Positions 6,513-61,724 of a stretch of 64,000 bases of DNA are shown one piece after another. A model generated the notes under the pieces. The model worked only from the letters and a program-made list of their open reading frames with translations, was not told where the DNA came from and did not search any database. Both the position numbers and the translations under genes were made by a program. Source of the DNA: Styela clava (lineage: Eukaryota); assembly GCF_964204865.1 (NCBI RefSeq), contig NC_135260.1, positions 8,866,001 to 8,930,000 of the forward strand, written 5' to 3'. The first letter of the stretch is position 1. Each line of letters begins with the position of its first letter.

Positions 6513-8342
6513 ATGGACTTCTGTATATTATTGCTGCTGGTCTCCACCATTTACTCATCGATTCTCTCGTGCACATTTGCTAATACGGATTGCGGTTCTT
6601 GCCATTCCATTTGTAATGAAACTGATGAAGGAATAACGGTTGATCGTAGCATAAGGTATCAAAGATGTATAGGACCACCCGGACAGAATGGGTCTCTTGG
6701 TCTGAAAGGAGAACCTGGCACCCGTGGACCTCCTGGTCAACACTGCGTCTGCGAAGAATACAAAAATCTTTTGAGTCAAGTAGAGTTTCTGCGGGAAGAA
6801 TTAGAAGGTGTGTAGATGGTTAACCATACTATCATAATTACAGACACTGTACCACAGTGGTAAAATGGTTTCTTTACAATGGCCGCGGTGGAGGTTAGTT
6901 GGCTCCAGTGAATTTAATCACAATAATTTATATTTGCAAATTTTATTTATATATATTCAATTTTTGATTGTTGTTCAGTAGCATTTCAGTTAGCATACAC
7001 AACACAAGAGCACTCAAGGTATATAATACGGAATGACCAAATCAACACACCCAGCGTAAACTTTAAAATAGATATATCATTACGACGAATTATTAAAGAA
7101 GTTTATGATTCGATAGCAATAATTTTAAATTTCAGAAATTCAAGGAAATATTTTTAAATTAGTTTAACAAAATTACCTTATACACATTCTCCAGTTTTAA
7201 TTGTTTCAAGACTTTTATTGCATCGATTTTAAACTCAGTGGTTATGAGCTGACCAGCTACAATATTTCAGCAATTCAATGTTAATCTTTGATGATGAACT
7301 AAACATAGATATAAACATAAAAATTCTTAATTTAAACTCTGGCGCGAACACGACCAGAAAAGACCCGATCTGGCGTGAAATTATGAGCCGACAAGTAATG
7401 AAATGGTACATTATTTTGGATGTCTTATTCTGTAATACGCTTGTTTCACCCAAACACATAGTCGCATTTAGAACAGTTTTTTTACGACGACTCCTATCAT
7501 TTTATTCAGTGTTCAAAAAACATTCCAAGATGGAATTCTCGGAATGGAAAAAGGCAAAAAATGGGATGTGGTATCGTTTGTATGAAGACCGAGCAAATTG
7601 GGAACAAGCAAAATTAAATTGCGAAGCAGAAAACGCAAGATTGCCTTCGACCGGAATGAGAAATAGAACCATACGAAAGTAAGTGTTTTCTTTCCTTTTT
7701 ATTAGTGTTAATTTCAAGTTATTTTTGTTGAGGCAAAAGGATTTTTGATGGATGGTGATGATGGAATGAAGGAATTCTTTGTTTCAACGTTTGTTGTCTA
7801 TGGAATTTTTTCAAATGCGAATTTCCCATTAGTTCAGCGTTTACACTAAAATGAATGTATGTGACAACATGGGATCAACAGCACCGTTCGTGTTCTCGTG
7901 ATACCACTTCTCGTTCCTCACTAGTCTTGCGGTTGATGGTCGAGACAATCTTTGTTTGCAATTGAGTTGCAATTTGTTTAATATCAATGCTATTATAAGA
8001 TATACTGAATGTTATTATTAAAAACTTTCTCGGGTTGTTGCTAGTTAAACTTTTATTTCTATTTATTATTTAAGGGAAGTATTTCGTGGTTTACCGAGAA
8101 CAATAAAGTATCTGTGGTTGGGATTCAACGATATCCAGCAAGAGGGAAGATGGGTCTGGTCAGACAATGTCGAACTCTTCGATTTCTACTGGCGGGGAGG
8201 AGAACCAAATAATGCTTGGGGTGTCGAAGATTGCGCTCGCCTTAGAATTGAATCGCATGAAACAGGGAAAATAACAGTAAACGACCTCCCTTGCACTCAG
8301 ATGGCTATAACTTCTCGTTATATATGCGAATACGTGCCGTAG
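6513..8342 (+). CDS. Collectin-like C-type lectin C1, 3 exons, about 243 aa
   Basis: Exons 6513-6807, 7510-7678, 8075-8342. Signal peptide, Cys-rich segment, 8 Gly-X-Y triplets (GPPGQNGSLGLKGEPGTRGPPGQH), CVC neck, CTLD with WLG, EPN, EDC, VND, YICE. AATAAA at 8370. Confidence 0.9.
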
Positions 8343-8405: not shown

Positions 8406-8621
8406 GGCGCTCTCGATGGCGGACACCGAAACGTAGTACAGTATGTGTACCAGGTTAGGGTTAGGCCATAGTTTTATTCCAATTTTCCTCATTTTAGTTC
8501 TATTACGAGTTCGATGACTAGCCAAGTGACTCCCGTAGTATTTCCAGAAATTATGGCATAACCTGGTACACATACTACGTTCCGGTGTCCGCCATCTTGG
8601 TTTACATACTACGGGAGTACG
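8406..8621. mobile_element. Palindromic MITE (GG..CC-end family with GGTTAGGGTTAGG), copy 1
   Basis: Homologous to 25602-25837; 8-bp TSD CTTTTACA (8398-8405, 8622-8629). Confidence 0.85.
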
Positions 8622-10245: not shown

Positions 10246-10469
10246 GTATGTGAACCAAGATGACGGGCACCGGAACGTAGTGTGTGTGCCAAGTGATAGT
10301 TGGGCCATAATTCCAGGTACAAATACTACGGGAGTCAATTGGCTAGTCCCCGAACGCGTAATAGAACTGAAATAAGGAAAATTGGAAAAAAATTATGGCC
10401 TAACCCTAACCTGGTACACATACTACGTTCCGGTGTCCGCCATCTTAGTTCACATAATTCGGGAGTATC
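10246..10469. mobile_element. Palindromic MITE, copy 2 (left end truncated), about 50 bp upstream of the HAO start codon
   Basis: Same long inverted arms (AACCAAGATG.CGG.CACCGGAACGTAG / CTACGTTCCGGTGTCCGCCATCTT) as the other copies. Confidence 0.8.
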
Positions 10470-13500: not shown

Positions 13501-14347
13501 CCAGAAGTAGTAAAAGCTGTGAATGGTAGATGTGATGTTTACTTTGACGGAGGAATTCGTAAAGGAACTGACATCGCGAAAGCACTTGCTCTTGTGGCTA
13601 AAGCCGTTTTCATCGGAAGGCCAATACTTTGGGGTCTTGCTTGCGATGTATGAATGTCTGTATATTTGATTTTAACGTGCAATATAGGTATAACTTCCAC
13701 ACGGTCAAATGCACTGGCAATCTGTACAATACTGCTCATGATTTTTGAGTAGAACTGCCCAGTATGAATGATTGTGCTGGGCGACATGCATGTCGTAGCT
13801 TCTATAAAGCAGTGCTACTCAAAATGGGATTGTTTTTCAACTATATTGCTGCTCGCGTACTACACGCATTTGACACGACATTTTAAAAGTTATTCTGAAA
13901 AGCATCTTGGCCATATCATTAGAAGTAAATGATTCAATCCAAAACCAAAACGATTCTGGTTCCATAACTTTAAGGAAAACGTTTTTGTTTATTGTCCTGT
14001 TAAAACGATTTGATTCTGATTTATTCATTTTCTTCATATAACAAACCTGATAGCAAATTACTATTTGTATAATATTTCACTAATTTGTTAATTTGCAAAG
14101 AAATATTCAACAGGGTGAAGCGGGAGTCAAAAAAGTTCTTGAAATTTTAAAGGATGAACTTGTTACAACCATGCAGCTGTTAGGTGAGATTTTAGAATCC
14201 TCGACAAAAAAATCTGTTGGCGTGATTATGTAGATTTTTCATATCTTATAATATGGTTTCAATTTTCCAGGTGTAACATCGATCAAGGAATTGCAATCAA
14301 CGCCTAATTTGGTTGTTCACGAGTCACGTGTTTTTGCAAAGTTATGA
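10521..14347 (+). CDS. HAO: Peroxisomal FMN-dependent 2-hydroxyacid oxidase (HAO1/HAO2 family), 9 exons, about 371 aa
   Basis: In-frame exons 10521-10657, 10787-10938, 11269-11384, 11865-12010, 12109-12275, 12523-12614, 13489-13647, 14114-14183, 14271-14347. Motifs [48 protein letters not shown]. Ends in the PTS1 signal AKL followed by stop. Confidence 0.92.
12864..13325. mobile_element. Degraded DNA-transposon remnants in an HAO intron (hAT-like end with a pogo/Tc-like fragment inside)
   Basis: Begins CAGTGGTTCCCAAAC, with GGGTCGCGACCCAC near 13310. TACCGTGTTTTTTCGAAAATAAGAC near 12982 resembles a pogo/Tc2 terminus. No TSD found. Confidence 0.4.
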
Positions 14348-14688
14348 AGAAAACAGAAGTTGTGCTATATTATATAGACTAGGGATTAGGTATAGTGTCA
14401 ATAGCTTGAATCATGAGCCTGTCTACTCGATTGATCGACCAAACTATTTTGCTCGTATTCATGGGGCACCTGATATCACGCGAAAATAGGTGAAAACACC
14501 AAAGCCTTGGTAGCTTTAGGTTGAATAACATGTTACGCCTTGATGCATCACTTTCAACTTATGTATATACAGTAGAGGTTGTTTGCATGTTAGCGTTGCA
14601 GTCACGGTTAGTATGTTAATGGGGTAAAATGATTTTTATTAAAAATTTGACTACAAATGAAAGTATACCATTTTAATATATTTTCTGA

Positions 14689-16963
14689 TTATATTTTTTC
14701 ACACAAATACTCTAATATGTCCACCGTACATCTACCGTCATTCAGGTACAGCCTGTTATCTTTTCTAAATAGCAGGGCGCAATCTTCAACTCCTTTGTGA
14801 TTATTTGGTTCTCCAGAAGACCACAAGGAATGATCAACAGTTGAGTCATCGACATCATCGGACCAAATAAATCTTCCTTCTTGTGTAACGTCATCCAGTC
14901 CAATCCAGCAATATGAAATTGAAGCCAATATTCCATTTTGTAGTTTCCTGAACAATCATGTCGTAAAATTATTGCCAGTATAGACAGACAAGATGCATCT
15001 CGTGAATAAATTCGACATTGACATTGCCGTTAATAATCAGACAGACAAGATGCATCTCGTGAATAAAATCGACATTGACATTGCCGTTATTGCATTTTTA
15101 CACCATTATCGAAAAGTTCTTCACCTGGCGGTCTCTTCGGTAATGATTTGAAAACGCTCAGGTCTAATTGAAACATCGTCTCTGAATGGGACTCAAAATA
15201 TAAATTGTAAATCGCTTCATAAACCTGTACTTTCATATAACTAAATGCAAAAGAAAATTTTTATAAGTATTTACTCACTGCCGGACAGTTGCGTCCCTTA
15301 TCCCCGCCGAAGCAAGTCTAGCATTGAATGATTGGCAGCTTTCTTTTGCATCTGGATAACTCATTGTTTCATCGAAAAGTCGATACCAGAAACCGTTGCT
15401 AGCTTTAGTCCAACCTTGTGCCTTCAAACTGAAGTCTTTCAAATCTGAGATATTTCAGGAGATTCCAATTATTGATTGTCACAATATACGCCTTTTTGTT
15501 GTATTGGGACAAGCAGAGTAGATAGTTTGAACTAATGATGATAAATATGTGTGGCATTAAATGACCTTGTATATGATACAAGTTTTAATGAATTATATAA
15601 AACTTGGAACATTGTTGGGAGTACTCATAGTCCGAGCACTAATGTAAAACTGCTATTCGAACGAAAAATGATGTGCTCGACAACTAGTTCAGCCTTAATT
15701 GTGCTTCTGCAATATATTATGCATTTTTGCTTTGTTACACGGGAATATATATATATTTTTCATGAAAGCAACATTTTTCGTTTTGATGTTAAAAATTCCT
15801 TCAACGTTAGGTCACAGATGCTCATTCGGAAAAAAATATAAAAGGCTGTCAAGATTAAGTACATCATTAAACGGAAAACTTAAAAAAATAAACAAACAAA
15901 AATCAATTTTAAAAGCCACATTTAAACTTCCAATGCTGGTTATTTTGCGTTGAAACAAAAACAACTATTTACAGTTTCATCATACAGGATCCGTTATTTC
16001 AAATTGTGTTGATTTTTTTAATTCACGCACACATCTTCATGTAACATTCAGCACAATCATTTTAAGAATTAGCATGAATTTTGCTGATTTTGCGTTGGAT
16101 GTATTTAGTCATCTGTCTTTCGTGTTTATATCTGCAGCAATGATCATTTGTGTGTTATCAAGTTTCACGATATCGAGCTGACGGGCTTAATGTATTTTAC
16201 TAAAGTAATATTATTCGGAAACGGAGTGTTCATTCGGATCCTTTTGCTAAATTCTTTGTTATCGTTTTTATGAAAAAAATAGATACTAACATTTTTATTA
16301 CTAAAAGTTGGTTGAAGTTATTGGGAAGGTATTAGCTTTTCCCTCTTGCTTCCCAATAATTATTTAAAACAAGGGGATGCTTCAATTAAAGTGAGCACCT
16401 TTTTATTTGGTCACACTTGTCCTTATCCTCCTCGGTGGCAGCAAAGTCGAGTTGGATTACTTTTGAGGCCCCACCGTGGTAAGGCACCAATGCATGGTAT
16501 ATATTCTTATTGGTCTCTTGTTTATATAACAGAAATAATACATTTCATCATACTCTAGTTTTCTTTAATAGCGTTACATTCTTAGTATTGATTTACCAGT
16601 TTTATGTTTTTAAGATTAGACTCATCTTATATATTCTGTTTGATTCCTCTTACCAGATAATTCTGTTTGCAGCGAGTCTATTTTTCTTGACACAATATCA
16701 AATTCAGAGCAGTGACAAGGAAGACCTGATTCTCCTGTAGGCCCTGGTAAACCAGGAAGTCCACGATCTCCCTTTTGGCCAATTCTACCGGCTTTTCCTG
16801 GAGGGCCGACAGCCCTTGTAGGGAATTCAAGATTTTGATTTGCTCCGTCCTCGTTTTGATCGCACGAAAGACGACAAGATCCAAGCTCTATACTTGCGAA
16901 CCCCGGAGAAAAACATAATGAACCACAAACTAAGGAGAAAGCAAGTGTAGCTCTTACAGCCAT
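14689..16963 (-). CDS. Collectin-like C-type lectin C2, 3 exons, about 244 aa
   Basis: Exons 16963-16654, 15444-15279, 14947-14689. Signal peptide, CRLSC, 10 Gly-X-Y triplets with GPPGKAG, PCHC neck, CTLD with WIGL, EPN, EDC, LND, YLCE. Confidence 0.92.
14983..15089. repeat. Local tandem duplication of about 50 bp in C2 intron 2
   Basis: GACAGACAAGATGCATCTCGTGAATAAA.TCGACATTGACATTGCCGTTA occurs twice here but once in C3 and C4. Confidence 0.85.
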
Positions 16964-17004
16964 TTGGTTTTAGATTACTTTTATAATATAATGTTTGCCA
17001 TAAA

Positions 17005-17230
17005 ACTCTAAAACGAATACATGCATAATTCGATTAATATTCAGCAACATGTCGCAAGAGATATAATTCAGAAAGAGTCATAATTCTAACAATACCCAAT
17101 CAATCAACCAATCGACAGTCAAAATTTTTTTTATTTTTCAATATTCTGCACTGTTCTCACTTCAGTATGTAAACCAGGATAGCCGAGTAAATACTGTCGC
17201 CTTTTGTCGGGTTAGTTTCATAAAACGTCT
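17005..17230 (-). promoter_or_regulatory. Candidate core promoter, short non-coding exon and 5'UTR intron of C2, with homologous blocks upstream of the relic, C3 and C4
   Basis: On the minus strand: TATA-like block near 17216-17225 (TATAAAA in the relic and C4 copies), ACAGT initiator-like site near 17195, GTGAGA donor at 17160, and a TTTTAG acceptor about 45 nt before the ATG. Confidence 0.35.
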
Positions 17231-18063
17231 CAGAGTTGGGAGTCGGAATCACAATTTCGACAAAGACACACCTGTGATTCAGCTTGATAAATAAAAATTA
17301 AACGCACGATAAGCGCGTGTCTCTTATCTGCTTTTGTATAATATAACTTATATCAATATATTGACTGATTTGCTTCATGTCGTTCGGTTAATGTTTAACT
17401 ATACTTCCTCGTTGGTATTGGTAATTCGTCACCACAAAACTCGAATATTTGTCTTTCAAGTCGAGCGCAAAGGTAAATGACCTTTCTATCTTCCAGATTC
17501 CCAAAACAAGCTTCGTTTGACCACTGCGTCAAGGATGAGCAAAATGTTGTACGGCGGTAAATAAGGGACATTCAATTTTGAAATATCAATCATTTAATTA
17601 TAATATCATATAAATTTTATGTACCACTAATGGTTTATTTCTCGGTAATTGGGCCATTTCTGGGTCCATGAAGTTCTATGAATTCAACTTACTATCCAAT
17701 ATAGTTGGGGATCATCGTATCTTAGTTGTAGCTAAACTTTAGTATTTGACTCAATTCAAATTTTTAATTAGACGCCCTAATCGCATTTTTATACATCCTT
17801 AAAAGGTCAATATGACGTCATAATGTAATCGGTATACCCTCATTGTAAAAGAGGGGCCACACAAATGGCATAGCATAAGGCAGGGATGGCGAACATTTTT
17901 TAATGAAACATATATATATATATTTTTATTATGGAAAAGAAGAAAGTGGTTCATAGATATATGAGATACTTGACAATACAGTAATGAGAAACTCGCTGTT
18001 GCATCGTTTCCGCAATTCACTTAATCCTTGGTTGGTGTTGTGTAGTTTTTCAGCTTTACATAT

Positions 18064-18788
18064 CGTCACGCTAATAACCGAATTGCGTAAGTCATTTTTG
18101 GCGATTTTGAGTTTTTTGTAAAATAGGTATTTATATAATGCTGCGCACTTGTCTGTTAACTCGGATTTTATTTTAAGAATTCCGAAACCCATAAAAATGG
18201 AGATTTAGTATGACATCCACATTTGTGCAATTGTTTCGTCCTAATGAATTATCATTGTTACCGCAGGACTGTTGTGACGTTACAAGGGCAAAATAACCTC
18301 GGCTAAGTGTTTTCGAGTTTTTTCATCCCGGATTTTAGCTTAGCGCTTATTAATTTGAATTTATACTACAGTATAGGAAGACGTGCACTTGTGATATTCA
18401 CTGTCCGAGTCCAATTCACCTTGGTTGGCTTTTATATTGGATGCATTGCTGTTTTATTCTTTATATTTAATCTTATTTCGGTGGGTGTGCAGAACGTGTT
18501 ATATTGATAAAATATATATTTTTAAACGTAAAAAATATTGTAATTAAAACTGATTAGCTATTTTTGGAATCGGACATTGTAGATACTGAGAATTACATTC
18601 GTTTTTGAAAGGTTTAGTTTTCAGGACTGGTGCATATAGTAAAGTTGCAAAATTGCGTATGTCCCCAAGTCATAGACACATTTCTGCCTAAGTCACAGTG
18701 CGCTATTATGACGTCACTTAACTGCGTCATACAAATTAACTTAAATCCGGCTACGATCAAAAAATTAAACCAAGACACATTATTACTG
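18064..18788. mobile_element. MITE (CGTCACGCTAATAACCG family), right TIR deleted
   Basis: Homologous to the complete copy at 46570-47032. The empty site CAGCTTTACATATGCAGC is present in the paralogous spacer near 22993. Confidence 0.85.
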
Positions 18789-18930
18789 CAAAGTATGAGC
18801 TCGTTCCAATTACACTAAAAACGTTCTGCTGCCCTATTTGATTCATGTATTTCTGAAAGAGAACAGCTGTAACAAGACAAATTGCGAGAAATGAACAATT
18901 TAATTTTATTGTTATGATATAAACATTGTT

Positions 18931-18969
18931 ACAAACAATGAAGAGAGCAAGTGTAGCTTTTATAGCCAT
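18931..18969 (-). pseudogene. Collectin relic: only the first 13 codons (MAIKATLALFIVC) and the upstream region remain
   Basis: Matches the C4 start (MAVRAALALFIVC) and its upstream sequence. It is fused directly to spacer sequence that lies about 350 bp downstream of the stop codon in C3 and C4. Confidence 0.85.
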
Positions 18970-19328
18970 TGGATTTTAGATTATCTTTATTATTTATTGT
19001 TTGTCATAAAACTCTAAAACAAATACATGCATAGTTCAAATATTATTCAGCAACATGGCTCAGAAAATATAATGCAGAGAAAGTAATGATTCTGATACAA
19101 CCCAGAACCAATCGACAGTCGAAATTTTATTTATTTTTTAATATTCTGCATTGTTCTCGCTTTAGTATGTAATCCAGGATAGCCGAGTCAAATACTGTCG
19201 CCTTTTGTCGGGTTAGTTTTATAAAACGTCTCAGAGTTGGGAGTCGGAATCACAATTTCGACAAAGACACACCTGTGATTCAGCTTGATAAATAAAAATT
19301 AACGCACGATGAGTGCGTGTCTCTTGTC

Positions 19329-22277
19329 CAGTGGCGGCGCGTGGTCATTTTGACAACCGGGGCAAGCTACTGCCGGACCAAGTCACCCCCATCTACGGGG
19401 ACAGGATGAGCGCTGTAAGTTCTCCCATCATTTTATGAGTATAAAACCCATTCCATCGGTAACAACCAATCGGCAAAAGCGACAATTTTTAACGATAGGA
19501 AAGTGTCTTTAAAACCGGTCCAAGTCAAGGGATTAATAAATATAGACATAGTTTATTTTGAAACCTCTTTCAAAAGGAAAGGCAATATTTACCCAGATAA
19601 ATACAATGACATATTAACAGAAGCTTCGGGAAAGCAGACAAAACCTAAAATAAGGTTTAAAACGTTACTATGAAGAAAGGAAAAGTAATGCAAAGGTAAG
19701 GACATGCGTCGCTCACTCATAGATATATATGCTGCTAGACTTCTACTGCTTGAACATATATGCAAACGCGCCGCGGTTTCTTGGAAGCAAAATGCTCAAT
19801 AACGCGCTGATAAAAGTCATGCATCCCAGAAATAACGTCTCTGTGAATGGATAAAACAGCTAAGGAATTTAATCTATCTTGCTTCATTGTGTTTCTGAGA
19901 TACGTTTTAATACGCTTCAGCGTGCTGAATGTTCGCTCTGCGTCGGCGGAAGAAATAGGCGTCGTCAAAATGATGTCCAGAAATTTTGCAGACGCCGCAA
20001 AGGTAGTTACTAGAGTGTTATCTATGAGGAACCCATAGAGCGCGCAAGTTGATGTGATGTTCAAAAAAGTTTGATTGGTGTATATACATCGCAATTCATT
20101 TTCCAATTTACCCACTTTATCATGGGGTAAAATTTGGAGACAGTAGCCAACAAATGGATGGGAAATTGACGTGCAAATTTTGAAATTTTTGGGGTTCATC
20201 AAAGAGAACGCGGCAAGGTGTTCAGTGCGCAGACGCAGGCGTAAAGAAGCACTCCATGTGTCGTCGTATTTTATTGTTTCCCGGATACGAGATACAGCAT
20301 CGCAGAAGTCTGAAATACACGACTGCACAGACGCTCCATCCATTAGCCTTGACTGCAATGCGCCGTATAATACATCCACGTGATAGAATATCGTGGAGAA
20401 AAAAGCGAGAAAAAATAAAAAATCACCATCTTCTAGCAGACGCTGTAGACCTGCCGCCTCCCTCACAGACCGTTCGTCCCAAACCGGAGAGCTCTGAATG
20501 CCATTGAAACACTCAATGAGCTCAGACCTAATTTCGGACACGCCCTGCACCACGCGTGATTGGAAGTTCCAACGTGTTGGTGCACAAGCTGGGAGACGGC
20601 GGCTACATATCTGTCGAAAGAGGTCAGAGCGCTTCGGCGAAACGGAAAAAATGAAGAAAACCCCGAAACATTTGCAAAAAATATACGGACGAGAGGGGTA
20701 TCAAGACACATATTTTTAATAACGAGGTTAAATTGGTGTGCATAACAATGTAAAAAATGCGCATGAGAAAAATCTTCTTTTATATAAACTTGAACACCAT
20801 GTTTCGACCCACTCATGACTGCCGCGCCGTCATAAGTTTGAGCTATCAATTTTAGCTTCGCGTTGTAAGGCTGTATCACTTCTTTCAGTACAGCCGATAT
20901 CCCGCAAGCCGTGCGATCAACGATTGGTACAAAGCTGTGAAATCTCTCGGTAGGTTTACCATCTTTCACAAACCGAAAAATCACAGCCAGTTGGGAAACG
21001 CACGTGATGTCAGTTGTCTCGTCAGACTGAATCGAAAGGAACTGGCAATTCTCAATTTCCAGAGCCAAATGTTGGAAATAAATTTTATACATTGAGTCGA
21101 GCAAATCATTTTGGATATCCTTAGATGTTCCTTCCGAAACAGTTGCGGCATCAAGATGATCTCTCAATACTGTATCTAGGGATGCGGTGTATTCCACCAT
21201 ATCCGAAAATACCCCTCTATTAGAAGAGCCAGCCCGTTCATCGTGCCCACGGAGGGACAACTCGTGACAACCAATGAACTTTAAAACATCTATCAATCGA
21301 CCGAGAACATGGCGGTTTTTCTCGACGTTTTGGTTGTGCGGACGAATACAAACCGCGCCATCTTCATCCAACTGTGCTGCAATATTAACATTTCCGAATG
21401 TTCGGTATTTTACTGCACTGTCCAGATGCTCCATAGGAGATTGATGATCCCTGGCACGCTCGGAAAGATGTTTAAGATCTCTAAAACCAAATTTACACCA
21501 ACGTGAGTCACGGGCGGTAGCAAAAAGTAGGCAATAAAAACAAAAAAGTGCATTTTTGTCCTCGCTGTAACACAACCATTTGTGTTTTTTATACCAAGTT
21601 TCTGCGCAGAATGTACGCCGACGCTTTCCTCCGTCATGAGATTGTTCCAGTGAACAATTTTTTGGTCGATAAGGCCCAAGTCGTTGTACTTCTAAATTTT
21701 GTTCCAGCGGCAGCTGCGAAAACAGAGTGCGAAGGAGTGCATCAACCTTATTCATTATGAGGTCTAAGGCTAAGAAATGCGAAGCCGGAAAGAAGTGAGC
21801 AGCTCAAAAGGAATGTGAAAAATCGAAAGCAAATGGACTAAAGGTCTCTAACAGATTCAAATAGCGAAACAAGCGACAAAAACGAAGGCGAGGAAACTAT
21901 CAACTCTTCAAGCAACCAACGAACGAGATGGAATGCGTGAATATGTCAACACGTTGTTGTAAGAAACGTCGGCATTGTGTCGTCATAATTTCGGGGCTAG
22001 CCCCGATCGGCCCCGATGATTTAGTAAAAGAAACAGAAAACAAACGAGACAAACGCGGCGAGTGGAACATAAAAGAGAGAATACGATATACAATGAGCAA
22101 TCGGGGCAAGATCGGCGTCGCCCCGTCGACGTTCGGCGAAGGCTTTGCGAGCGAAAAATGAACCATGTCGGGAGAATATGGCTAGTGTAGACAGTCTGTG
22201 CAACCGATATTGAGGTATTTTTCGAATATTTTTTATTATACCGAAAAAACAACCGGGGCAATGGTCCTATTAACGCG
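19329..22277 (-). mobile_element. hAT DNA transposon (Tip100/ZMYM1-like transposase), decayed, one terminus deleted
   Basis: Left end CAGTGGCGGCGCGTG after CTCTTGTC. The right end stops at AACGCG and joins spacer lacking about 20 bp. ACAACCGGGGCAA occurs near both ends. Absent from the paralogous spacers. Confidence 0.9.
19735..21755 (-). pseudogene. Frameshifted hAT transposase
   Basis: TTF-type Zn finger (WLCYSEDKNALFCFYC), LRGHDE, DETTD, YDGA, HCYAH, TRW (in a shifted frame) and dimerization motif PISSADAERTFSTLKRIKTYLRNTM. Frameshift at the T-run near 20646 and a locally shifted segment near 20120-20180. Confidence 0.9.
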
Positions 22278-22836
22278 TTATACCAATATACTGACTAATT
22301 TGCTTCATTGTCGTTCGGTTAATGTTTAACTATACTTCCTCGTTGGTATTGGTAACTCGTCACCACAAAACTCGAATATTTGTCTTTCAAGTCGGGCGCA
22401 AAGGTAGATGACCTTTCTATCTACCAGATTCACAAAACAAGCTTCATTTGACCTCTGCGTCAAGGATGAGCAAAATGTTGTACGGCGGTAAATAAGGGAC
22501 ATTCAATTTTAAAAAATCAATCATTTAATTATGATATCATATAAATTTTATGTACCACCGGTATGTTAGTCGTTGGTACCACTAATGGTTTATTTATCGG
22601 TAATTGGGCTATTTCTGGGTCCATGAAGTTCTATGAATTCAACTTACTATCCAATCTAGTTGGGGGATCATCGTATCTTAGTTGTAGCTGAAATTTAGTA
22701 TTTGACTCAATTCAAATTATTGATTAGACGCCATAATCGCATTTTTAGACAACCTTAAAAGGTCAATATGACGTCATAATGTAATCGATATACCCTCATT
22801 GTAAAAGAGGGGCCTCGCAATTGGCATAACGTAGGG

Positions 22837-23575
22837 CAGGGATGGTGAACCTTTTTTTATTGAAACATATATATTTTTATTATGGAAAAGAAGACAGTCA
22901 TAGATATATGAGATACTTGACAATAATGAGAAACTCGCTGTTGCATCGTTTCCGCAAGTCACTTAATCTTTGGTTGGTGTTGTGTAGTTTCTCAGCTTTA
23001 CATATGCAGCACTTATATCAGGACTGGGACAAATATAATATTACCACCACAAATCTTTCCATGGTTTTAAAAGGGTTTGAACGGGAATTCCACTGAGCAA
23101 AGTATACTTTTCGATTGGCTCCAAATTACGATAAGGTTACTACCATCATGCTCCATTGTTATTATGATTACAGAAGTCGTTAAGTTAGGTCTATAAAACT
23201 TGGTTTCCCATATGGCATTGCATGCGAGAAATAAATAAATTGCAAAGTATGAGCTCGTTCCAACTACACTAAAAACGTTCTGCTGCCCGATTTGATTCAG
23301 GTATTTCCGAAAGAGAACCGCTGTAACAAGACAAATTGCGAGAAATGAACAGATTAATTTTATTGTTATGCCATAAACATTGTTACAACATTGTTGTCAG
23401 GAGCTACATACAGATATAGTTTGCTTATTGTTGGATTGAATCAAGTCGGGTTTTATGATTAATTTCATTGCTTACATGTTACTATGTTCTTTGCATTAAT
23501 CCGTAACTTGGCGCGTCTAAGAAAAAACATGGCTGGTCACCTTGTGACCCGCGGGTCAGTGATTCGCCATCCATG
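22837..23575. mobile_element. Old non-autonomous hAT (Charlie/Buster-like) embedded in the repeat spacer; copies at 27155-27743 and from 17881 (truncated)
   Basis: Ends CAGGGATGG(C/T)GAAC...TTCGCCATCCATG, with degenerate nnnTAnnn flanks (ACGTAGGG/GCTTAGGC; GCATAGGA/GCCTAGAC). A related end lies near 9064-9130. Confidence 0.5.
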
Positions 23576-23741
23576 GCTTAGGCTAGGGTCCTCATTGTCA
23601 AAATCAAGCCCTGATTTAAGAGAAATGTTTGTGTTTAATGCTATGTTAAAAAGAATTGAGTTTCTGTGTATGATATTATGGTGAAATGATTTGTTCTAAA
23701 AATTTGATTTTGAATGAAACTAATTTTTCCATATTTTCTGC

Positions 23742-26182
23742 TCATATTTTTTCACACAAATACTTTGTGGCATATTGACATGCTCCATCATTTAGGTACA
23801 ATCTGTTATTGTGTCTGAATATCATAGCGCAATCTTCAACTCCTCCCGAATTATTTGGTTCTCCAGTAGACCACAAGGAATGATCAACAGTTGAGTCATC
23901 GACATCATCCGACCAAATAAATCTTCCTTCTTGTGTGACGTCATCCAGTCCGATCCAGCAGTTTGAAATTGAACTCAATATTCCATTTTGTAGTTTCCTG
24001 AACAATCATGTCGTGAAATTATTGCCAGTATGCAGTATTATCAGACGGACAAGATGCATCTCGTGAATAAAATCGACATTGACATTGCCGTTATTGCATT
24101 TTTACACTATTATCGAAAAGTTCTCTGCCTGGCGGTCTCTTCGGTAATGGTTTGAAAACGCTCAGGTCTAATTGAAACATCGTCTCTGAATGGGACTCAA
24201 AATATAAATTCTAAATCGCTTTATAAACTTGTACTTTCATATAACTAAATGCAAAAGAAGTATTTACTCACTGCCGGACAGTTGCGTCCCTTATCCCCGC
24301 CGAAGCAAGTCTAGCATTGAATGATTGGCAGCTTTCTTTTGCATCTGGATAACTCATTGTTTCATCGAAAAGTCGATACCAGAAACCGTTGCTAGCTTTA
24401 GTCCAACCTTGTGCCTTCAAACTGAAGTCTTTCAAATCTGAGATATTTCAGGAGATTCCAATTATTGATTGTCACAATATACGCCTTTTTGTTGTATTGG
24501 GACAAGCAGAGTAGATAGTTTGAACTAATGATGATAAATATGTGTGGCATTAAATGACCTTGTATATGATACAAGTTTTAATGAATTATATAAAACTTGG
24601 AACATTGTTGGGAGTACTCATAGTCCGAGCACTAATGTAAAACTGCTATTCGAACGAAAAATGATGTGCTCGACAACTAGTTCAGCCTTAATTTTGCTTC
24701 TGCAATATATTATGCATTTTTGCTTCGTTACACGGGAATATATATATGTTTTTCATAAAAGCAACAATTTCGTTTTTATGTTAGAATTTCTATCAACGTC
24801 AGGTCACAGATGCTCATTCGGAAAAAAATTATGAAAGGCTGTCAAGATCAAGTACAATATAAAGCGGAAAACAAAAAACAGTTTTAAAAGCCACAATTAC
24901 ACTTCCAATGCTGGGTATTTTGCGTTGAAAAAAATAATACCTATATACAGTTTCATCATACAGGGCCCGTTATTTCAAATTGTGTTGATTTTCTTAATTC
25001 ACGGACACATCTTCATGTAACATTCAGCACAATTATTTTAAGAATTAGCCTGAGTTTTGCTGACTTTGCGTTGGATGTATTTAGTCATCTGTCTTTCGTG
25101 TTTATATCTGCAGCAATGCTCATTTATGTGTTATCAAGTTTCACAATATAGAGCTGATGGGCTTAATGTTGTTCACTAAAGTATTATTATTCGGAAACGA
25201 AGTGTTCATTCGGATCCTTTTGCTAAATTCTTTGTTATCGTTTTTATGAAAAAAATAGATACTAACATTTATATTACTAAAAGATGGTTGAAGTTATTGG
25301 GAAGGTATTAGCTTTTCCCTCTTGCTTCCCAATAATTATTTAAAACAAGGGGATGCTTCAATTAAAGTGATCACCTTTTTATTTCGTCACACTTGTCCTT
25401 ATCCTCCTCGGTGACAGCAAAGTCGAGTTGGATTACTTTTGATGCCCCACCGTGGTAAGGCACCAATGCATGGTATATTTTCCTATTGGTCTTTTTTTCA
25501 TATAACAGAAATAATACATTTCACCATACTCTAGATTCTTTAATAGCGTTACATTCTTAGTATTGATTTACCAGTTTTAGGTTTTTAAGATTAGACTCAT
25601 CGGTGCTCCCGAAGTATGCGAACCAAGATGGCGGACATCGGAACGTAACATGGGTAACAGGTTAGGGTTAGGCCATAATTTGTTTCCAATTTTCTTTATT
25701 TTAGTCCTATTATCAGTTTGAAGACTAGCCAAGTGCTTCCCGTAGTATTTATACCTAAAATTATGGCCTAACCCTAACATAGTACACATATTACATTCCG
25801 ATGTCCGCCATCTTGGTTCGCATACTTCGGGAGCCCCGACTCATCGTATATATTCTGTTTGATTCCTCTTACCAGATAATTCTGTCTGCAGCAATTCCAT
25901 TTTTCTCGACACATTATCGAATTCAGAGCAGTGACAAGGAAGACCTGGTTCTCCTGTAGGCCCTGGTAAACCAGGAAGTCCACGATCTCCCTTTTGACCG
26001 ATTTTACCGGCCTTTCCCGGAGGGCCAACTGCCCTTGTAGGAAATCCAAGATTTTCATTTGCTCCGTCCTCGTTTTGATCGCACGAAAGACGACAAGATC
26101 TAAGCTCTATACTTGCGAACCCCGGAGAAATACATATTGAACCACAAACTATGGCGAAAGCAAGTGTAGCTCTTGCAGCCAT
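23742..26182 (-). CDS. Collectin-like C-type lectin C3, 3 exons, about 243 aa
   Basis: Exons 26182-25873, 24437-24272, 23997-23742. Same architecture as C2, with EPN and LND. Confidence 0.92.
25602..25837. mobile_element. Palindromic MITE, copy 3 (complete), in C3 intron 1
   Basis: GGTGCTCCCGAAGTATGCGAACCAAGATGGCGGACATCGGAA...TTCCGATGTCCGCCATCTTGGTTCGCATACTTCGGGAGCCCC, perfect 8-bp TSD GACTCATC. The empty site is in C2 near 16619. Confidence 0.95.
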
Positions 26183-27908
26183 TTGGTTTTAGATTACTTT
26201 TATAATATAATGTTTGCCATAAAACTCTAACATGAATACATGCGTAATTTGATTAATATTCAGCAACATGTCGCAAGAGATATAATGCAGAAAGAGTTAT
26301 AATTCTGATAATGCCCAGAATCAATCAACAGACAAAATTTTCTGTAATTTTCAATATTCTGTACTGTCTTCACTTCAGTATGCAAACCGGGATAGTCGAG
26401 TCAAATACTGTCGCCTTTTGTCTGAGTAGTTTTATGAAACGCCTCAGAGTTGGGAGTCGGAATCACAATTTCAACGAAGACACACCTGTGATTCAGCTTA
26501 GTAAATAAAAATGAAACGCACGATAAGCGCGTGTCTCTTGTCTGCTTTTGTATAATATAACTTATTACAATATATATTGACTGATTTGCTTCATTGTCGT
26601 TCGGTTAATGTTTAACTATACTTCCTCGTTGGTATTGGTAACTCTTCACCACGAAACTCGAATATTTGTCTGAAGTCTAGCGCAAAGGTAAATGACCTTT
26701 CCATCTTCCAGATTCACAAAACAAGCTTCGTTTGACCACTGCGTCAAGGATAAGCAAAATGGTGTACAGAGGTAAATGATGGGCTCTAAGCCTTAAGGGC
26801 CCCGACATTTAGCTTTGAAATATCAATCATTCAATTATGATATCATATAAATTTTATGTATCACTAATGGTTCATTTGTCGGTAGTTGGGCCATTTCTGG
26901 TGTCATGAAGTTTTATTACAACTTGAGTTTGTTAAAGGTTTATTGAATTCAACTTACTATACAATCTGGTACTATACTTGGGTGATCAGCCTATCTTACT
27001 TGTAGTTAAAATTTCGCATTTGACGCAATTCACAATTTCATTTACGACACCATATCACATTTTACACATCCTTAAAAAGTCAAATATGACGTCATAATGT
27101 AATCGATATAACGTCATTGTAAAAGAGGGGAATCACAAATGGCATAGCATAGGACAGGGATGGCGAACCTCTTAATGATTGCGTCAGCTTATATATTTTC
27201 ATTATGGAAAAGAAGACAGTGGGTCATAGATATATGAGATATTTGACTATAATGAGAAACTCGCTGTCGCTTCGTTTCCTCAAGTCTTATATCCCCTGGT
27301 TGATGTTGTGTAGTTTTTCAGTTTTACACATGCAGCACCTATATCAGGACAGCGTTAATTTGGGTCTATAAAATTTGGTTTTCCATACGGCATTGCAAGC
27401 GGGAAAGGAATAAACTACAAAGTATGAGCTCGTTCCAATTACACTAAAAACGTTCTGCTGCCCTATTTGATTCATGTATCTCCGAAAGAGAACCGCTGTA
27501 ACAAGACAAATTGCGAGAAATGAACAGATCAATTTTATTGTTATGCCATAAACATTGTTACAACATTGTTGTCAGGAGATGCATACAGATATAGTTCACT
27601 TATTGTTAGATTGAATCAAGGCGTGTTTTATTATTGATTTTATTGCTTACATGTTACCATGTTCCTTGCATCAATTCGTAACTCGGCGGGTCTAAGGAAA
27701 AACATGAGCATGTGACCCGCGGGACAGGGACTCGCCACCCTAGGCCTAGACTAGGACTCATTGTCGAAATCCAGCCCTGATTTGAGAGAAATGTTTGTGT
27801 TTAATGCTATGTTAAAACGGTCTTCAGTTTCGGTATATGATATTATGATGAAATGATTTGTTTTAAAAATTTGATTTTAAATAATATTAATTTCTCCATA
27901 TTTTCTGC

Positions 27909-29470
27909 TTATATTTTTTCACACAAATACTTTGTGGTATATGGACAGTTTCCATCATTTAGGTACAATCTGTTATTTTGTCTAAATACCACAGCGCAAT
28001 CTTCACCTCCATTCGCATTATTTGGTTCTCCAGATAACCATAAGGAATGATCGACAGTTAAGTCATCGACATTATCCGACCAAATAAATCGTCCTTCTTG
28101 TGTGACGTCATCCAGTCCGATCCAGCAGTTTGAAATTGAAGCCAATATTCCATTTTGTAGTTCCCTGAACAATCATGTCGTAAAATTATTGCCAGTATAT
28201 GCAGTATAATCTGACAGACAAGACGCATCTCGTGAATAAAATCGACATTGACATTGCCGTTATTGCATTTTTACAACATAATCGAAAAGTTCTCTATCCT
28301 CTATCGGGCGGCCTTTTCGATAATGATTTAAAAACACTCAGGTCTAATTGAAACTCAAGTCTGTGTGGAACTCAAAACAGGTTCTACATTGTTTTATGAA
28401 TCCGTACTTCCATATCCCCAAATGAAGAAGACAATTTTATTAAATATTCACTCACTGCCGGACAGTTGCGTCCCTTATCCCCGCCGAAGCAAGTCTAGCA
28501 TTGTGTGATAAGCAGCTTTCTTTTGCATCTGGATAACTCTTTGCTTCGTCGAAAAGTCGATACCAGAAACCGTTGCTAGCTTTAGTCCAATGTGTCACCA
28601 AGTTCTTGAAGACTTTCAAATACAAAGTTATGTAGATGTAATTGATTAAGTAACTGACGCCAACAAGAATATTATTATTGGAAGTCGAACGATGATCGAT
28701 GAAGTTGTATCATCATTCTCAGTAAAGTTTTGTATATAATTTTTTAAACTATTCATAGCTTTCCCATAAACACCAGAAGTTTATGATACGGGGCAGATTT
28801 GTTTTTGTTGCTAAAGAAGAGGAAAGCAAATTCAATAATACGTCATAGTAATAAGACAACGAAAAACTATAAAAAATTCAGTGTGTAACAGTTTTGAAAG
28901 TGGGAATTTTGCTGTTAGTGACATCTTCCTGGAATTGGTTATAAATTATAACTTATAATTACTGTATGTAACAAAATTACTTAAACTATTCTATCATATA
29001 TATATATATATATATATTATGTACATCAGCGTTCCCCAGGAATGAATTGTTGATTTCTGGGAAGAAATACTGAAATATTATTTTATATTTAGGGAAGATG
29101 CATATTTTCAAAATGTGCAAATGGAGGAATTTATCAAAAAGGTTTTATATCACACTGTACCAGATAATTTTGTTTCCAGCGATTCTATTTTCCTTGACAC
29201 AACATCAAATTCAGAGCAACGGCAAGGAAGTCCCGGTTCTCCTGTAGGCCCTGGTAAACCAGGAAGTCCACGATCTCCCTTTTGGCCGATTTTCCCGGCT
29301 TTTCCCGGAGGGCCGACAGCCCTTCTAGGAAATCCAAGATTTTCATTTGCTCCGTCCTCGTTTTGATCACACGAAAGACGACAAGATCCAAGATCTATAC
29401 TTGCGAAACCCGAATAGATACCTATTGAACCACAAACAATGAATAAAGCAAGTGCAGCTCTTACAGCCAT
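27909..29470 (-). CDS. Collectin-like C-type lectin C4, 3 exons, about 240 aa
   Basis: Exons 29470-29161, 28612-28456 (shifted AAG acceptor), 28164-27909. CRLSC, 10 Gly-X-Y triplets, PCRC neck, EPN, LND. Confidence 0.85.
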
Positions 29471-31081: not shown

Positions 31082-32186
31082 TTATTGTTCCCGCTCGCAT
31101 ATGTAAGGTGCATTTGCGTAGCCTATGCCACAAGGAACGTCGTTCAAGGATACTTCCCCTGTTACGTGGCGAACGATATTCATCAGAGCACAATGTTCGT
31201 TACCCCGAGCGTTGTTTGGTTCCCCACTGCGCCACAGAGTGTGGCGACGGTATCTGACGTCACGAATTCCATCTGACCAAATCCACCTTCTTCCTCTGTT
31301 CAAGTCGTCAAGTCCAACCCACAAGTAGGACACTGTGTCGGCTATACTACTCAGTAACTCCCTGAAAAGATAAAAATTAAAATCAATTAGGAGACATATT
31401 TTAACGGAAAACGTCAAATATTTTACCCATGTGTTATTTATTAGAACGTGTTATTTTATATTAAATCATGGCACAGACAGTTTTGGGGCAAATTCGATTG
31501 ATGCGAAAAGTCCGATCAAGCACGTGTTACGCCGTTAATTTGAAGTAGAAAAAATGCGTCAAGAAAGAAAGATTAACACATATGGCGTGTTTTAAAATGA
31601 GAATTTCAATAAATAAATAGTACTTTCGTGTAGTCAGTTTTCTTATTCCCGCTGATGCAATTCTTGCGTTCTCTGCTGCGCAGTTTTTCTTGGCTTGTAA
31701 ATATGTTACATGCTCTTCAAAAAATCGATAAGCCAACCCATTGCTAGCATTACTCCAAGTCAAGAGTTTGAATTTTGCATGCTTTTTTAAATCTGGAATT
31801 GAGAGGATTAAAAAAAAGATTTTTATTAAGAAATGTGCTGATTAGTCAGACATTTTGCTTAAATGAAATAATTTTGAAGTTCAAGTCTTAAAGTTTGGGA
31901 GCACAATGAATAAATTCGAAAATGTATTCGTCTTACCTGCCAATTCATTTCGAAGATATTCCAAATCTTTCCTCAAATCTTTAAAAGCAGGGTCTGAACA
32001 CCCGCACGGTGATCCTGGAGGTCCTGCCTTTCCCGGAGGCCCTTGTGGACCAGGCAGCCCTGCTTCTCCTGTCTGAGGTACGCCAAGCTTCTCCAAACAA
32101 ATATGACATTGAGCATTGCCCAAAACTGTACCAATAAGCCCATAAAACAAACAAACAATCCCGCACAATGTAAAGCTGAACGTCAT
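31082..32186 (-). CDS. Collectin-like C-type lectin C5 (divergent), 3 exons, about 232 aa
   Basis: Exons 32186-31937, 31792-31624, 31361-31082. Signal peptide, CHIC, 7 Gly-X-Y triplets with GPPGKAGPP, PCGC neck, WVGL, EPN, EHC, LND, YICE. Confidence 0.9.
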
Positions 32187-61497: not shown

Positions 61498-61724
61498 GGG
61501 TATACGGCAGAAGGATGGCGGACATCGGAATGTAGTATGTGTACCAGGTTAGGGTTAGGCCATAATTTCAGGTCCATATACTACGGGAGTCACTTGGCTA
61601 GTCCCCGAACTCGTAATAGAACTAAAATAAGGAAACTTGGAATAAAATTATGGCCTAACCATAACTTGGTACAGATACTATATTCCGGTGTCCGCCATCT
61701 TGGTTCACATATTACGGGAGCGCC
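61498..61724. mobile_element. Palindromic MITE, copy 4
   Basis: Same family as 25602-25837, GG...CC ends, perfect 8-bp TSD AAATAAAC (61490-61497, 61725-61732). Confidence 0.88.

Follow-up and report, generated by a model that had tools for sequence, protein, structure and literature searches.

Do the tandem copies of a secreted lectin differ mainly where they would meet their sugar and, if they do, was it selection or recombination that placed the differences there? The question is raised by a cluster of C-type lectin genes of the ascidian Styela clava, found in a stretch of 64,000 nucleotides (assembly GCF_964204865.1, contig NC_135260.1, positions 8,866,001 to 8,930,000), hereafter the window, which lies within a 22-Mb contig of a 377-Mb genome and holds five lectin genes, C1 to C5, with three exons each. 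An initial annotation of the window had proposed that near-identical paralogs vary chiefly in their sugar-binding loops, through diversifying selection acting on a homogenized scaffold. The observation is real and probably reflects diversifying selection that is family-wide, part of the pattern being recombination history. It is likely, in our judgement, that C2, C3 and C4 (the trio) are tandem collectin-like genes, with C3 a hybrid, in which diversifying selection acts on residues of the predicted pocket rim and the calcium ligands remain unchanged. The lectins are of a known kind, and diversification of pocket residues is a familiar theme of immune genes, not new in kind.

Spliced models of C2, C3 and C4 were compared with NCBI proteins labelled as S. 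clava, and each matched one exactly (P0002, P0004 and P0001, respectively). The C1-C5 genes encode a signal peptide, a Cys-containing segment, a short collagen stretch, a neck helix and an EPN-type C-type lectin domain, here called the carbohydrate-recognition domain (CRD). Gly-X-Y triplets number 7-10, as counted in C2-C5 and in C0, a sixth paralog of 243 aa just upstream of the window (G000:C14:8848300-8865320; L031, L032). Over whole proteins C2 and C3 are 88% identical, and C4 is 80-83% identical to either, so that the trio is near-identical only locally.

Patches, framework and the mosaic history of the trio

Beyond the EPNN motif of exon 3 the trio differs in three patches, and the readings first given for them are exact for C2/C3/C4: EPNN[HK/SG/AN]G, EDCA[LL/MI/VV]FR[KD/HN/QN] and LNDG[RCTVDILE/ACQYATK/NCPYTTK]YLCE, with one further patch 1 difference, V/V/G, at alignment position 212. 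The framework between the patches is fixed as claimed, its codons showing no nonsynonymous difference in any of the three pairs. Amino-acid differences over the CRD cluster in C2/C3 (p=5e-5) and in C2/C4 (p=0.002), whereas C3/C4 alone shows no significant clustering (p=0.18; best 30-aa window against 20,000 permutations). The insertions ascribed to C1 and C5 at the same places were found in patches 2 and 3 (+3), but the length of patch 1 is unchanged.

C3 is a crossover hybrid, C2-like in its 5' part and C4-like in its 3' part. Between exon 2 and EPNN, 49 informative sites set C4 apart from the other two and 11 set C2 apart; beyond EPNN, with the 3' flank included, 57 set C2 apart and 8 C4, so the switch lies at EPNN. 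Upstream, C3 differs from C2 by 9% in the 5' flank, 8% in exon 1 and 6% in intron 1, and downstream its 3' flank differs from that of C4 by 11% (60/553). The pattern fits an origin of C3 by unequal crossing-over, close to the EPN loop, between genes of the C2 and C4 types, and crossing-over of this kind would probably also have made a second unit (the relic of Table 1), the coding part of which was later deleted. A subsequent gene conversion probably copied 434 bp between C2 and C3: an identity of about 430 bp over exon 2 and the adjoining intron had been noted at the outset, and the longest identical run is indeed 434 bp (Table 1), with no difference against 6-9% elsewhere. Between C2 and C4, exon 2 diverges by 6% as against 14% in intron 2, intron 1 being unalignable, and this closeness of exon 2 fits repeated exchange over the scaffold, purifying selection, or both. 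The scaffold is homogenized locally.

The post-EPNN block of C2 belongs to an older lineage. Its proportion of synonymous differences (pS) is 0.39, against 0.12 just upstream, its framework codons carry 7 synonymous changes, and the 3' flank of C2 lies 24% from C3 and 31% from C4; it is this pS, the diverged flank and the mosaic switch that identify the lineage as older. The divergence of C2 steps up at EPN and stays raised 3', beyond the coding end. An older recombined block, which had been named as the alternative to selection, accordingly accounts for the comparisons with C2, but the C3/C4 block has an ordinary pS of 0.08. Duplicates that diverge at a selected site under conversion have been described in the red/green opsins and RHD/RHCE, together with the Teshima-Innan divergence peak (cited passages of PMC3924837), and the trio resembles them in that introns and scaffold are homogenised and divergence is held at a functional segment. 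Unlike the Teshima-Innan peak, however, the divergence of C2 does not drop 3' and hence forms a step, which a crossover boundary explains without selection; only in C3/C4 does divergence exceed that of both flanks, and there the rise is confined to replacement sites. When a patch donor was sought among 92 other exons, the longest shared word, within the conserved EDCA codons, had just 13 nt; micro-conversion from known paralogs is accordingly not indicated, and a genome search with the 3' end of C2 matched C2, C3 and C4 only.

An assembly error that set alleles side by side as C2/C3 or C3/C4, or that made a chimeric join, seems highly improbable. The 434-bp identical tract is what such an error could leave behind, and the C3 protein has no older-version partner among the 4/4 cluster members compared, but private differences of C3 run over its full length (6-11% from the nearer neighbour), and it carries a miniature inverted-repeat transposable element (MITE) of its own. 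Contigs from sequencing runs that we guess to be RNA, no run being listed on record as such, match private C3 intron sequence with 0/174, 1/154 and 1/250 differences. Both introns are bridged by contigs from these presumed-RNA runs, one such contig has all 36 differences of C4 from C3, and another has the 13 of C2. The C3 type of exon 3 is absent among the matches listed (32 records of presumed-RNA contigs), which carries no information on expression.

Codon tests in the trio and across the family

The comparison of site models across paralogs, also proposed initially, was run on the 35 post-EPNN codons of the trio, with their own branch lengths. Model M2a improved on M1a (twice the log-likelihood difference, 2dL, 12.8; p=0.0017), placing 29% of codons in a class whose ratio of nonsynonymous to synonymous rates (omega) is about 9 and flagging H209, K210, L217, L218, K221, R231, T233, V234 and D235. 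The signal remained when indel-adjacent codons were left out (p=0.006) and when multi-base mutations (p=0.008) or rate variation (p=0.024) were allowed for, and the controls, exon 1 (2dL 0.0) and the pre-EPN part (2dL 0.06), gave no class with omega above 1. In C3/C4, the pair with synonymous divergence at flank level, pS after EPN is 0.08, and the proportion of nonsynonymous differences (pN) reaches 0.36 in the patches, against 0.15 for the block as a whole; of 400 simulations for each of three nulls, 1, 1 and 0 matched the likelihood ratio of this pair.

Because the trio region had been picked after inspection, an independent test was sought in other loci. Exon 3 has at least 144 matches in the genome, which contradicts the small repertoire first envisaged, and the pattern is family-wide; the sample comprised 110 of these loci (30 + 80, four duplicates), giving 105 distinct exons, of which 95 remained after the removal of 10 that contained stops or had a broken end. 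With 4 unlabelled exons taken out, 3 identical pairs collapsed and C2-C4 excluded, 33 disjoint pairs of less than 25% divergence were formed greedily. Their pooled pS is 0.14 on either side of EPN and 0.13 within the patches, and pooled pN is 0.066 before EPN, 0.085 in the post-EPN framework and 0.173 at patch positions. A mixture model again favoured sites of omega above 1 in the post-EPN part (2dL 27, p=1.3e-6, 21% of sites at omega ~5), the pre-EPN control yielding 2dL 0.0, and the result held with multi-base mutations (p=9e-6) and in the 26 ungapped pairs only (p=0.003). It is carried by the 15 farther pairs, fitted like the closest 18 on a grid, and with any one left out 2dL is still at least 22.9.

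Position by position, a free model exceeded one with omega capped at 1 by a 2dL of 24.2, a value that 0/200 simulations reached (maximum 19.6). Four positions have an omega above 2 (2.3-2.9), all of them after EPN, and 0/32 pre-EPN positions exceed 1.24; the fast ones lie at the end of beta3, at the two residues that follow ND and at the position two past the next cysteine. The statistics support evolution above the neutral rate at roughly one in five to one in three of the codons past EPN, both in this cluster and across the family.

Differences between database versions also favour the patch residues. For proteins filed as.1 and.2 of one accession, presumably from two assemblies, the cluster shows changes at 5/63 patch residues and 0/444 other CRD residues (C5, for which a single sequence exists, being counted as an identical pair), namely H209Y and L217M in C2, G209A in C4, and two adjacent changes in C0 that are possibly one event. 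At 7 other loci the counts are 6/90 and 14/757 (p=0.014), though version pairs bear on replacement sites only and may include assembly errors or mismatched paralogs. Of the 4/4 members compared in the older protein set, two are of C2 type and none is of C3 type, and a contig of run X7 differs from C3 at 15 sites, against 19 for C4 and 20 for C2, and keeps a C3-specific base; the two are weak hints of haplotype variation. P0003, the older version of C4, runs 22 residues past the stop and may be an allele or an assembly error.

Several points, beside the choice of the trio region after inspection and the nature of the version pairs, weigh against diversifying selection. Much of the visual contrast between patches and framework is mosaic history. 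The site models were our own GY94-type code (F3x4, fixed kappa 2.04), not PAML. Plain counts of pN and pS in C3/C4 after EPN do not differ significantly (Fisher p=0.34), C2/C3 and C2/C4 tested singly are not significant (p=0.15 and 0.22), and the columns that vary in the trio are those variable in the family at large (mean entropy 3.0 vs 1.8 bits). In the 33 pairs the regional mean omega of the patches is 1.06-1.16 (p=0.23-0.70 against 1), codon-wise rate variation lowers the signal to p=0.02 with an omega2 of 1.6, and the 18 closest pairs give no signal, their entire post-EPN region fitting omega=1. Position 230, the counterpart of SP-D Arg343, is moreover Gly in C2, C3 and C4 alike. The mean omega of the patches, the 18 closest pairs and the generally variable columns, with the synonymous and flank divergence of the older C2 block and its 7 framework changes, are the substance of another explanation, in which the post-EPN surface loops drift at omega ~1 under relaxed constraint and the framework is purified, with no selection for diversity, the contrast being sharpened because conversion and crossover stop at EPN. 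We consider this explanation doubtful. It leaves unexplained a C3/C4 block with ordinary synonymous and flank divergence and the four positions beyond all 200 capped simulations, and among equally variable columns 9/15 vary in the trio after EPN, against 2/9 before it. Diversifying selection is supported by the class of sites with omega above 1, found in the trio and in the 33 pairs, but the mean omega of the patches, the older C2 block and the hybrid C3 do not speak for it.

The predicted pocket rim and its ligands

In the CRD the Pfam family Lectin_C scores above its cut-off, and the domain is predicted with confidence (AlphaFold, 42-sequence alignment; pLDDT, the model's own confidence score, 84-98); a neck helix is predicted at residues 86-112. 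The collagen stretch consists of 10 uninterrupted Gly-X-Y triplets (residues 53-82; Pfam Collagen 24 bits, cut-off 27.2), preceded by a hydrophobic N-terminus, judged by eye to be a signal peptide, and C30 and C34, and followed by CxC. The best solved folds are CL-K1 (top Foldseek match), mincle, MBP-A and SP-D. The EPN motif is present in all of C1-C5, and the site-2 calcium ligands E, N, E, N and D are all retained in C2-C4, which on these features carry the sequence marks of collectins, with an unusually short collagen. Of the MASP motif (as given in the cited part of PMC2856262), C2-C4 have PGKAG[R/K], five of its six positions, and C5 the full PGKAGP; C2-C4 are not filed as MBL.

Vertebrate collectins (CL-K1/collectin-11 4YLI, MBP-A 1KWZ/1RTM, SP-D 1B08/1PW9) share with the trio the domain order, the EPN...E...ND ligands and the fold, and they too have variable residues flanking the conserved site, as for Asp325/Arg343 (passages of PMC2791854). 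Unlike them, C2-C4 have 10 Gly-X-Y triplets only, LND for WND and 23-28% identity, and the S. clava family is large and recombining where vertebrate collectins are few, stable genes. The MBL-like collectins of Ciona and Styela plicata, likewise ascidians, have the same architecture, and an expansion to 25 MBL genes has been reported for S. clava (PMC7540406, section 3.3.4; also PMC5465252). The cited ascidian MBL passages contain no site-level selection, conversion or hybrid genes, and full-text searches of an open library, which misses most subscription papers, yielded no paper on selection or hybrid structure in the S. clava lectin cluster. No close relative from outside S. clava turned up in protein searches.

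The patches were mapped by sequence alignment to solved collectins, where they align with pocket-flanking positions, in accordance with the initial placement of these segments around Ca2+ site 2. The alignment to SP-D is gap-free across EPN-x-x-G-G-x-EDC and ND-x-x-C; the double-mutant chain 4m17 anchors Asp325 to position 209 (H/S/A in the trio) and Arg343 to position 230, which evolves at one of the highest rates in the family (omega 2.9), and position 217 aligns with Glu333. Asp325 and Arg343 are variable pocket-flanking residues that determine ligand orientation in SP-D (PMC2791854, in part), and EPN indicates, with listed exceptions, a mannose-type primary preference, contacts outside the primary site giving selectivity (PMC4681411, in part). 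The remainder of patch 3 and the turn between beta3 and beta4 plausibly belong to a secondary site, on the analogy of langerin, in which K299, P310 and K313 (including the K313I polymorphism), residues in beta3 or just after ND, alter specificity within and between species (passages of PMC7276794). Langerin is a single-copy transmembrane receptor, unlike C2-C4. Its P310 and K313 would correspond to positions c2-1 and c2+2.

Judging from the solved collectins, the patch positions may thus set sugar orientation and secondary contacts, in which case the copies would bind mannose-, glucose- or N-acetylglucosamine-type termini in different glycan contexts. The residue differences round the predicted pocket are likely there because selection favours new binding preferences, and the driver would be microbial surface glycans in innate immunity. 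Selection might instead be real and the ligand something other than a microbial sugar (a protein, a self glycan of tunic, gametes or settlement and metamorphosis cues, or evasion of a pathogen that binds the lectin), which we think unlikely. Patch 3 past the cysteine and the beta3-beta4 turn would lie further from the primary site, and S. clava MBL and complement genes are reportedly expressed at metamorphosis (PMC7540406, section 3.3.4), but all site-2 calcium ligands are kept in C2-C4, and the fast positions adjoin them.

Features of the window and the lectin repertoire

The coordinates of the genes, tracts and relics discussed above are collected in Table 1.

Table 1. Lectin genes and recombination-related features in the window (positions of the window).
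Feature	Position	Strand	Basis
C2 exon 1: signal peptide, Cys N-terminus, 10 Gly-X-Y triplets, start of neck helix	16654..16963	-	model = P0002
C2 exon 2: neck end and beginning of C-type lectin domain	15279..15444	-	spliced model
C2 exon 3: WIGL, EPN, E, LND; post-EPNN block 14689-14799 of older lineage	14689..14947	-	model, divergence, informative sites
C3 exon 1, C2-like	25873..26182	-	model = P0004; intron joint 24437/25873 in contig of presumed-RNA run
C3 exon 2, no difference from C2 exon 2	24272..24437	-	sequence comparison
C3 exon 3; post-EPNN block 23742-23849 (three patches) C4-like	23742..23997	-	intron joint 23996/24271 in contigs of two presumed-RNA runs
C4 exon 1	29161..29470	-	model = P0001
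C4 exon 2; own acceptor, intron 1 unalignable to C2/C3	28456..28612	-	sequence comparison
C4 exon 3; post-EPNN block 27909-28016	27909..28164	-	presumed-RNA contig with the 36 differences of C4 from C3
C1, distant paralog, 243 aa; exons 6513-6807, 7510-7678, 8075-8342	6513..8342	+	gene model
C5, distant paralog, 232 aa, P0048; PGKAGP in collagen stretch	31082..32186	-	gene model
C2 copy of 434-bp identical tract: from the 3' end of intron 1 through exon 2 into the start of intron 2	15267..15700	-	alignment
C3 copy of 434-bp identical tract, likely recent gene conversion	24260..24693	-	alignment
C3 switch point (approximate), at EPNN loop; C2-like upstream, C4-like downstream	23826..23868	-	informative sites
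Relic repeat unit: C3/C4-type 3' flank joined to promoter and first exon 1 codons, coding part deleted	18785..19328	-	blastn 94% to 23241-23388, 87% to 16925-17328
hAT-type DNA transposon, two frames (DUF4371, Dimer_Tnp_hAT), in upstream flank of relic unit; ends approximate	19330..22280	-	Pfam, sequence

Around these features, intron 2 of C2 contains a tandem duplication of ~57 bp (14980-15090) that is not in the assembled C3 or C4 and is present in contigs of two runs. A very abundant MITE-like element with inverted arms of ~82 nt lies at 25600-25839, 8432-8620, 10246-10469 and 61514-61724, the first of these copies being in intron 1 of C3 and absent from C2. C0 has a near-identical copy, a seventh paralog, whose exon 3 is interrupted by a long terminal repeat (LTR) retrotransposon, presumably of Gypsy type by its motifs, in which long open frames resemble gag and pol. 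The last exons of a + strand gene (14100-14348) end 340 bp from the stop of C2; the gene may encode an FMN-dependent hydroxy-acid oxidase.

In the 95 exon 3 sequences the primary-site motif is EPN in 46, QPD in 22, QPN in 8, EPS in 7, ERN in 3, EPT in 3 and others in 6, and it switches inside subfamilies as well. The largest array seen, with more than 30 C-type lectin exons, is at G000:C13:16.62-16.87 Mb (loci among L011-L015, L026, L027, L030, L053-L072 and L109-L112); its variants include EPN, QPN, EPT and EPK, several without the ND pair, and it is a better site for a selection study than the C1-C5 cluster.

Tentatively, it is possible that the germline of S. clava encodes at least a hundred secreted C-type lectins in which diversifying selection acts on the pocket rim, and that unequal crossing-over at the EPN loop moves a whole specificity half-exon onto another promoter and scaffold, so that individuals would differ in the binding types that they carry. 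If true, this would be a haplotype-variable lectin repertoire in an invertebrate chordate. The trio is in any case a natural experiment, with a near-same scaffold, the same calcium ligands and about a dozen pocket-rim differences, and a glycan array could for that reason read out the effect of those residues, while the signal of selection reaches across a large ascidian lectin expansion.

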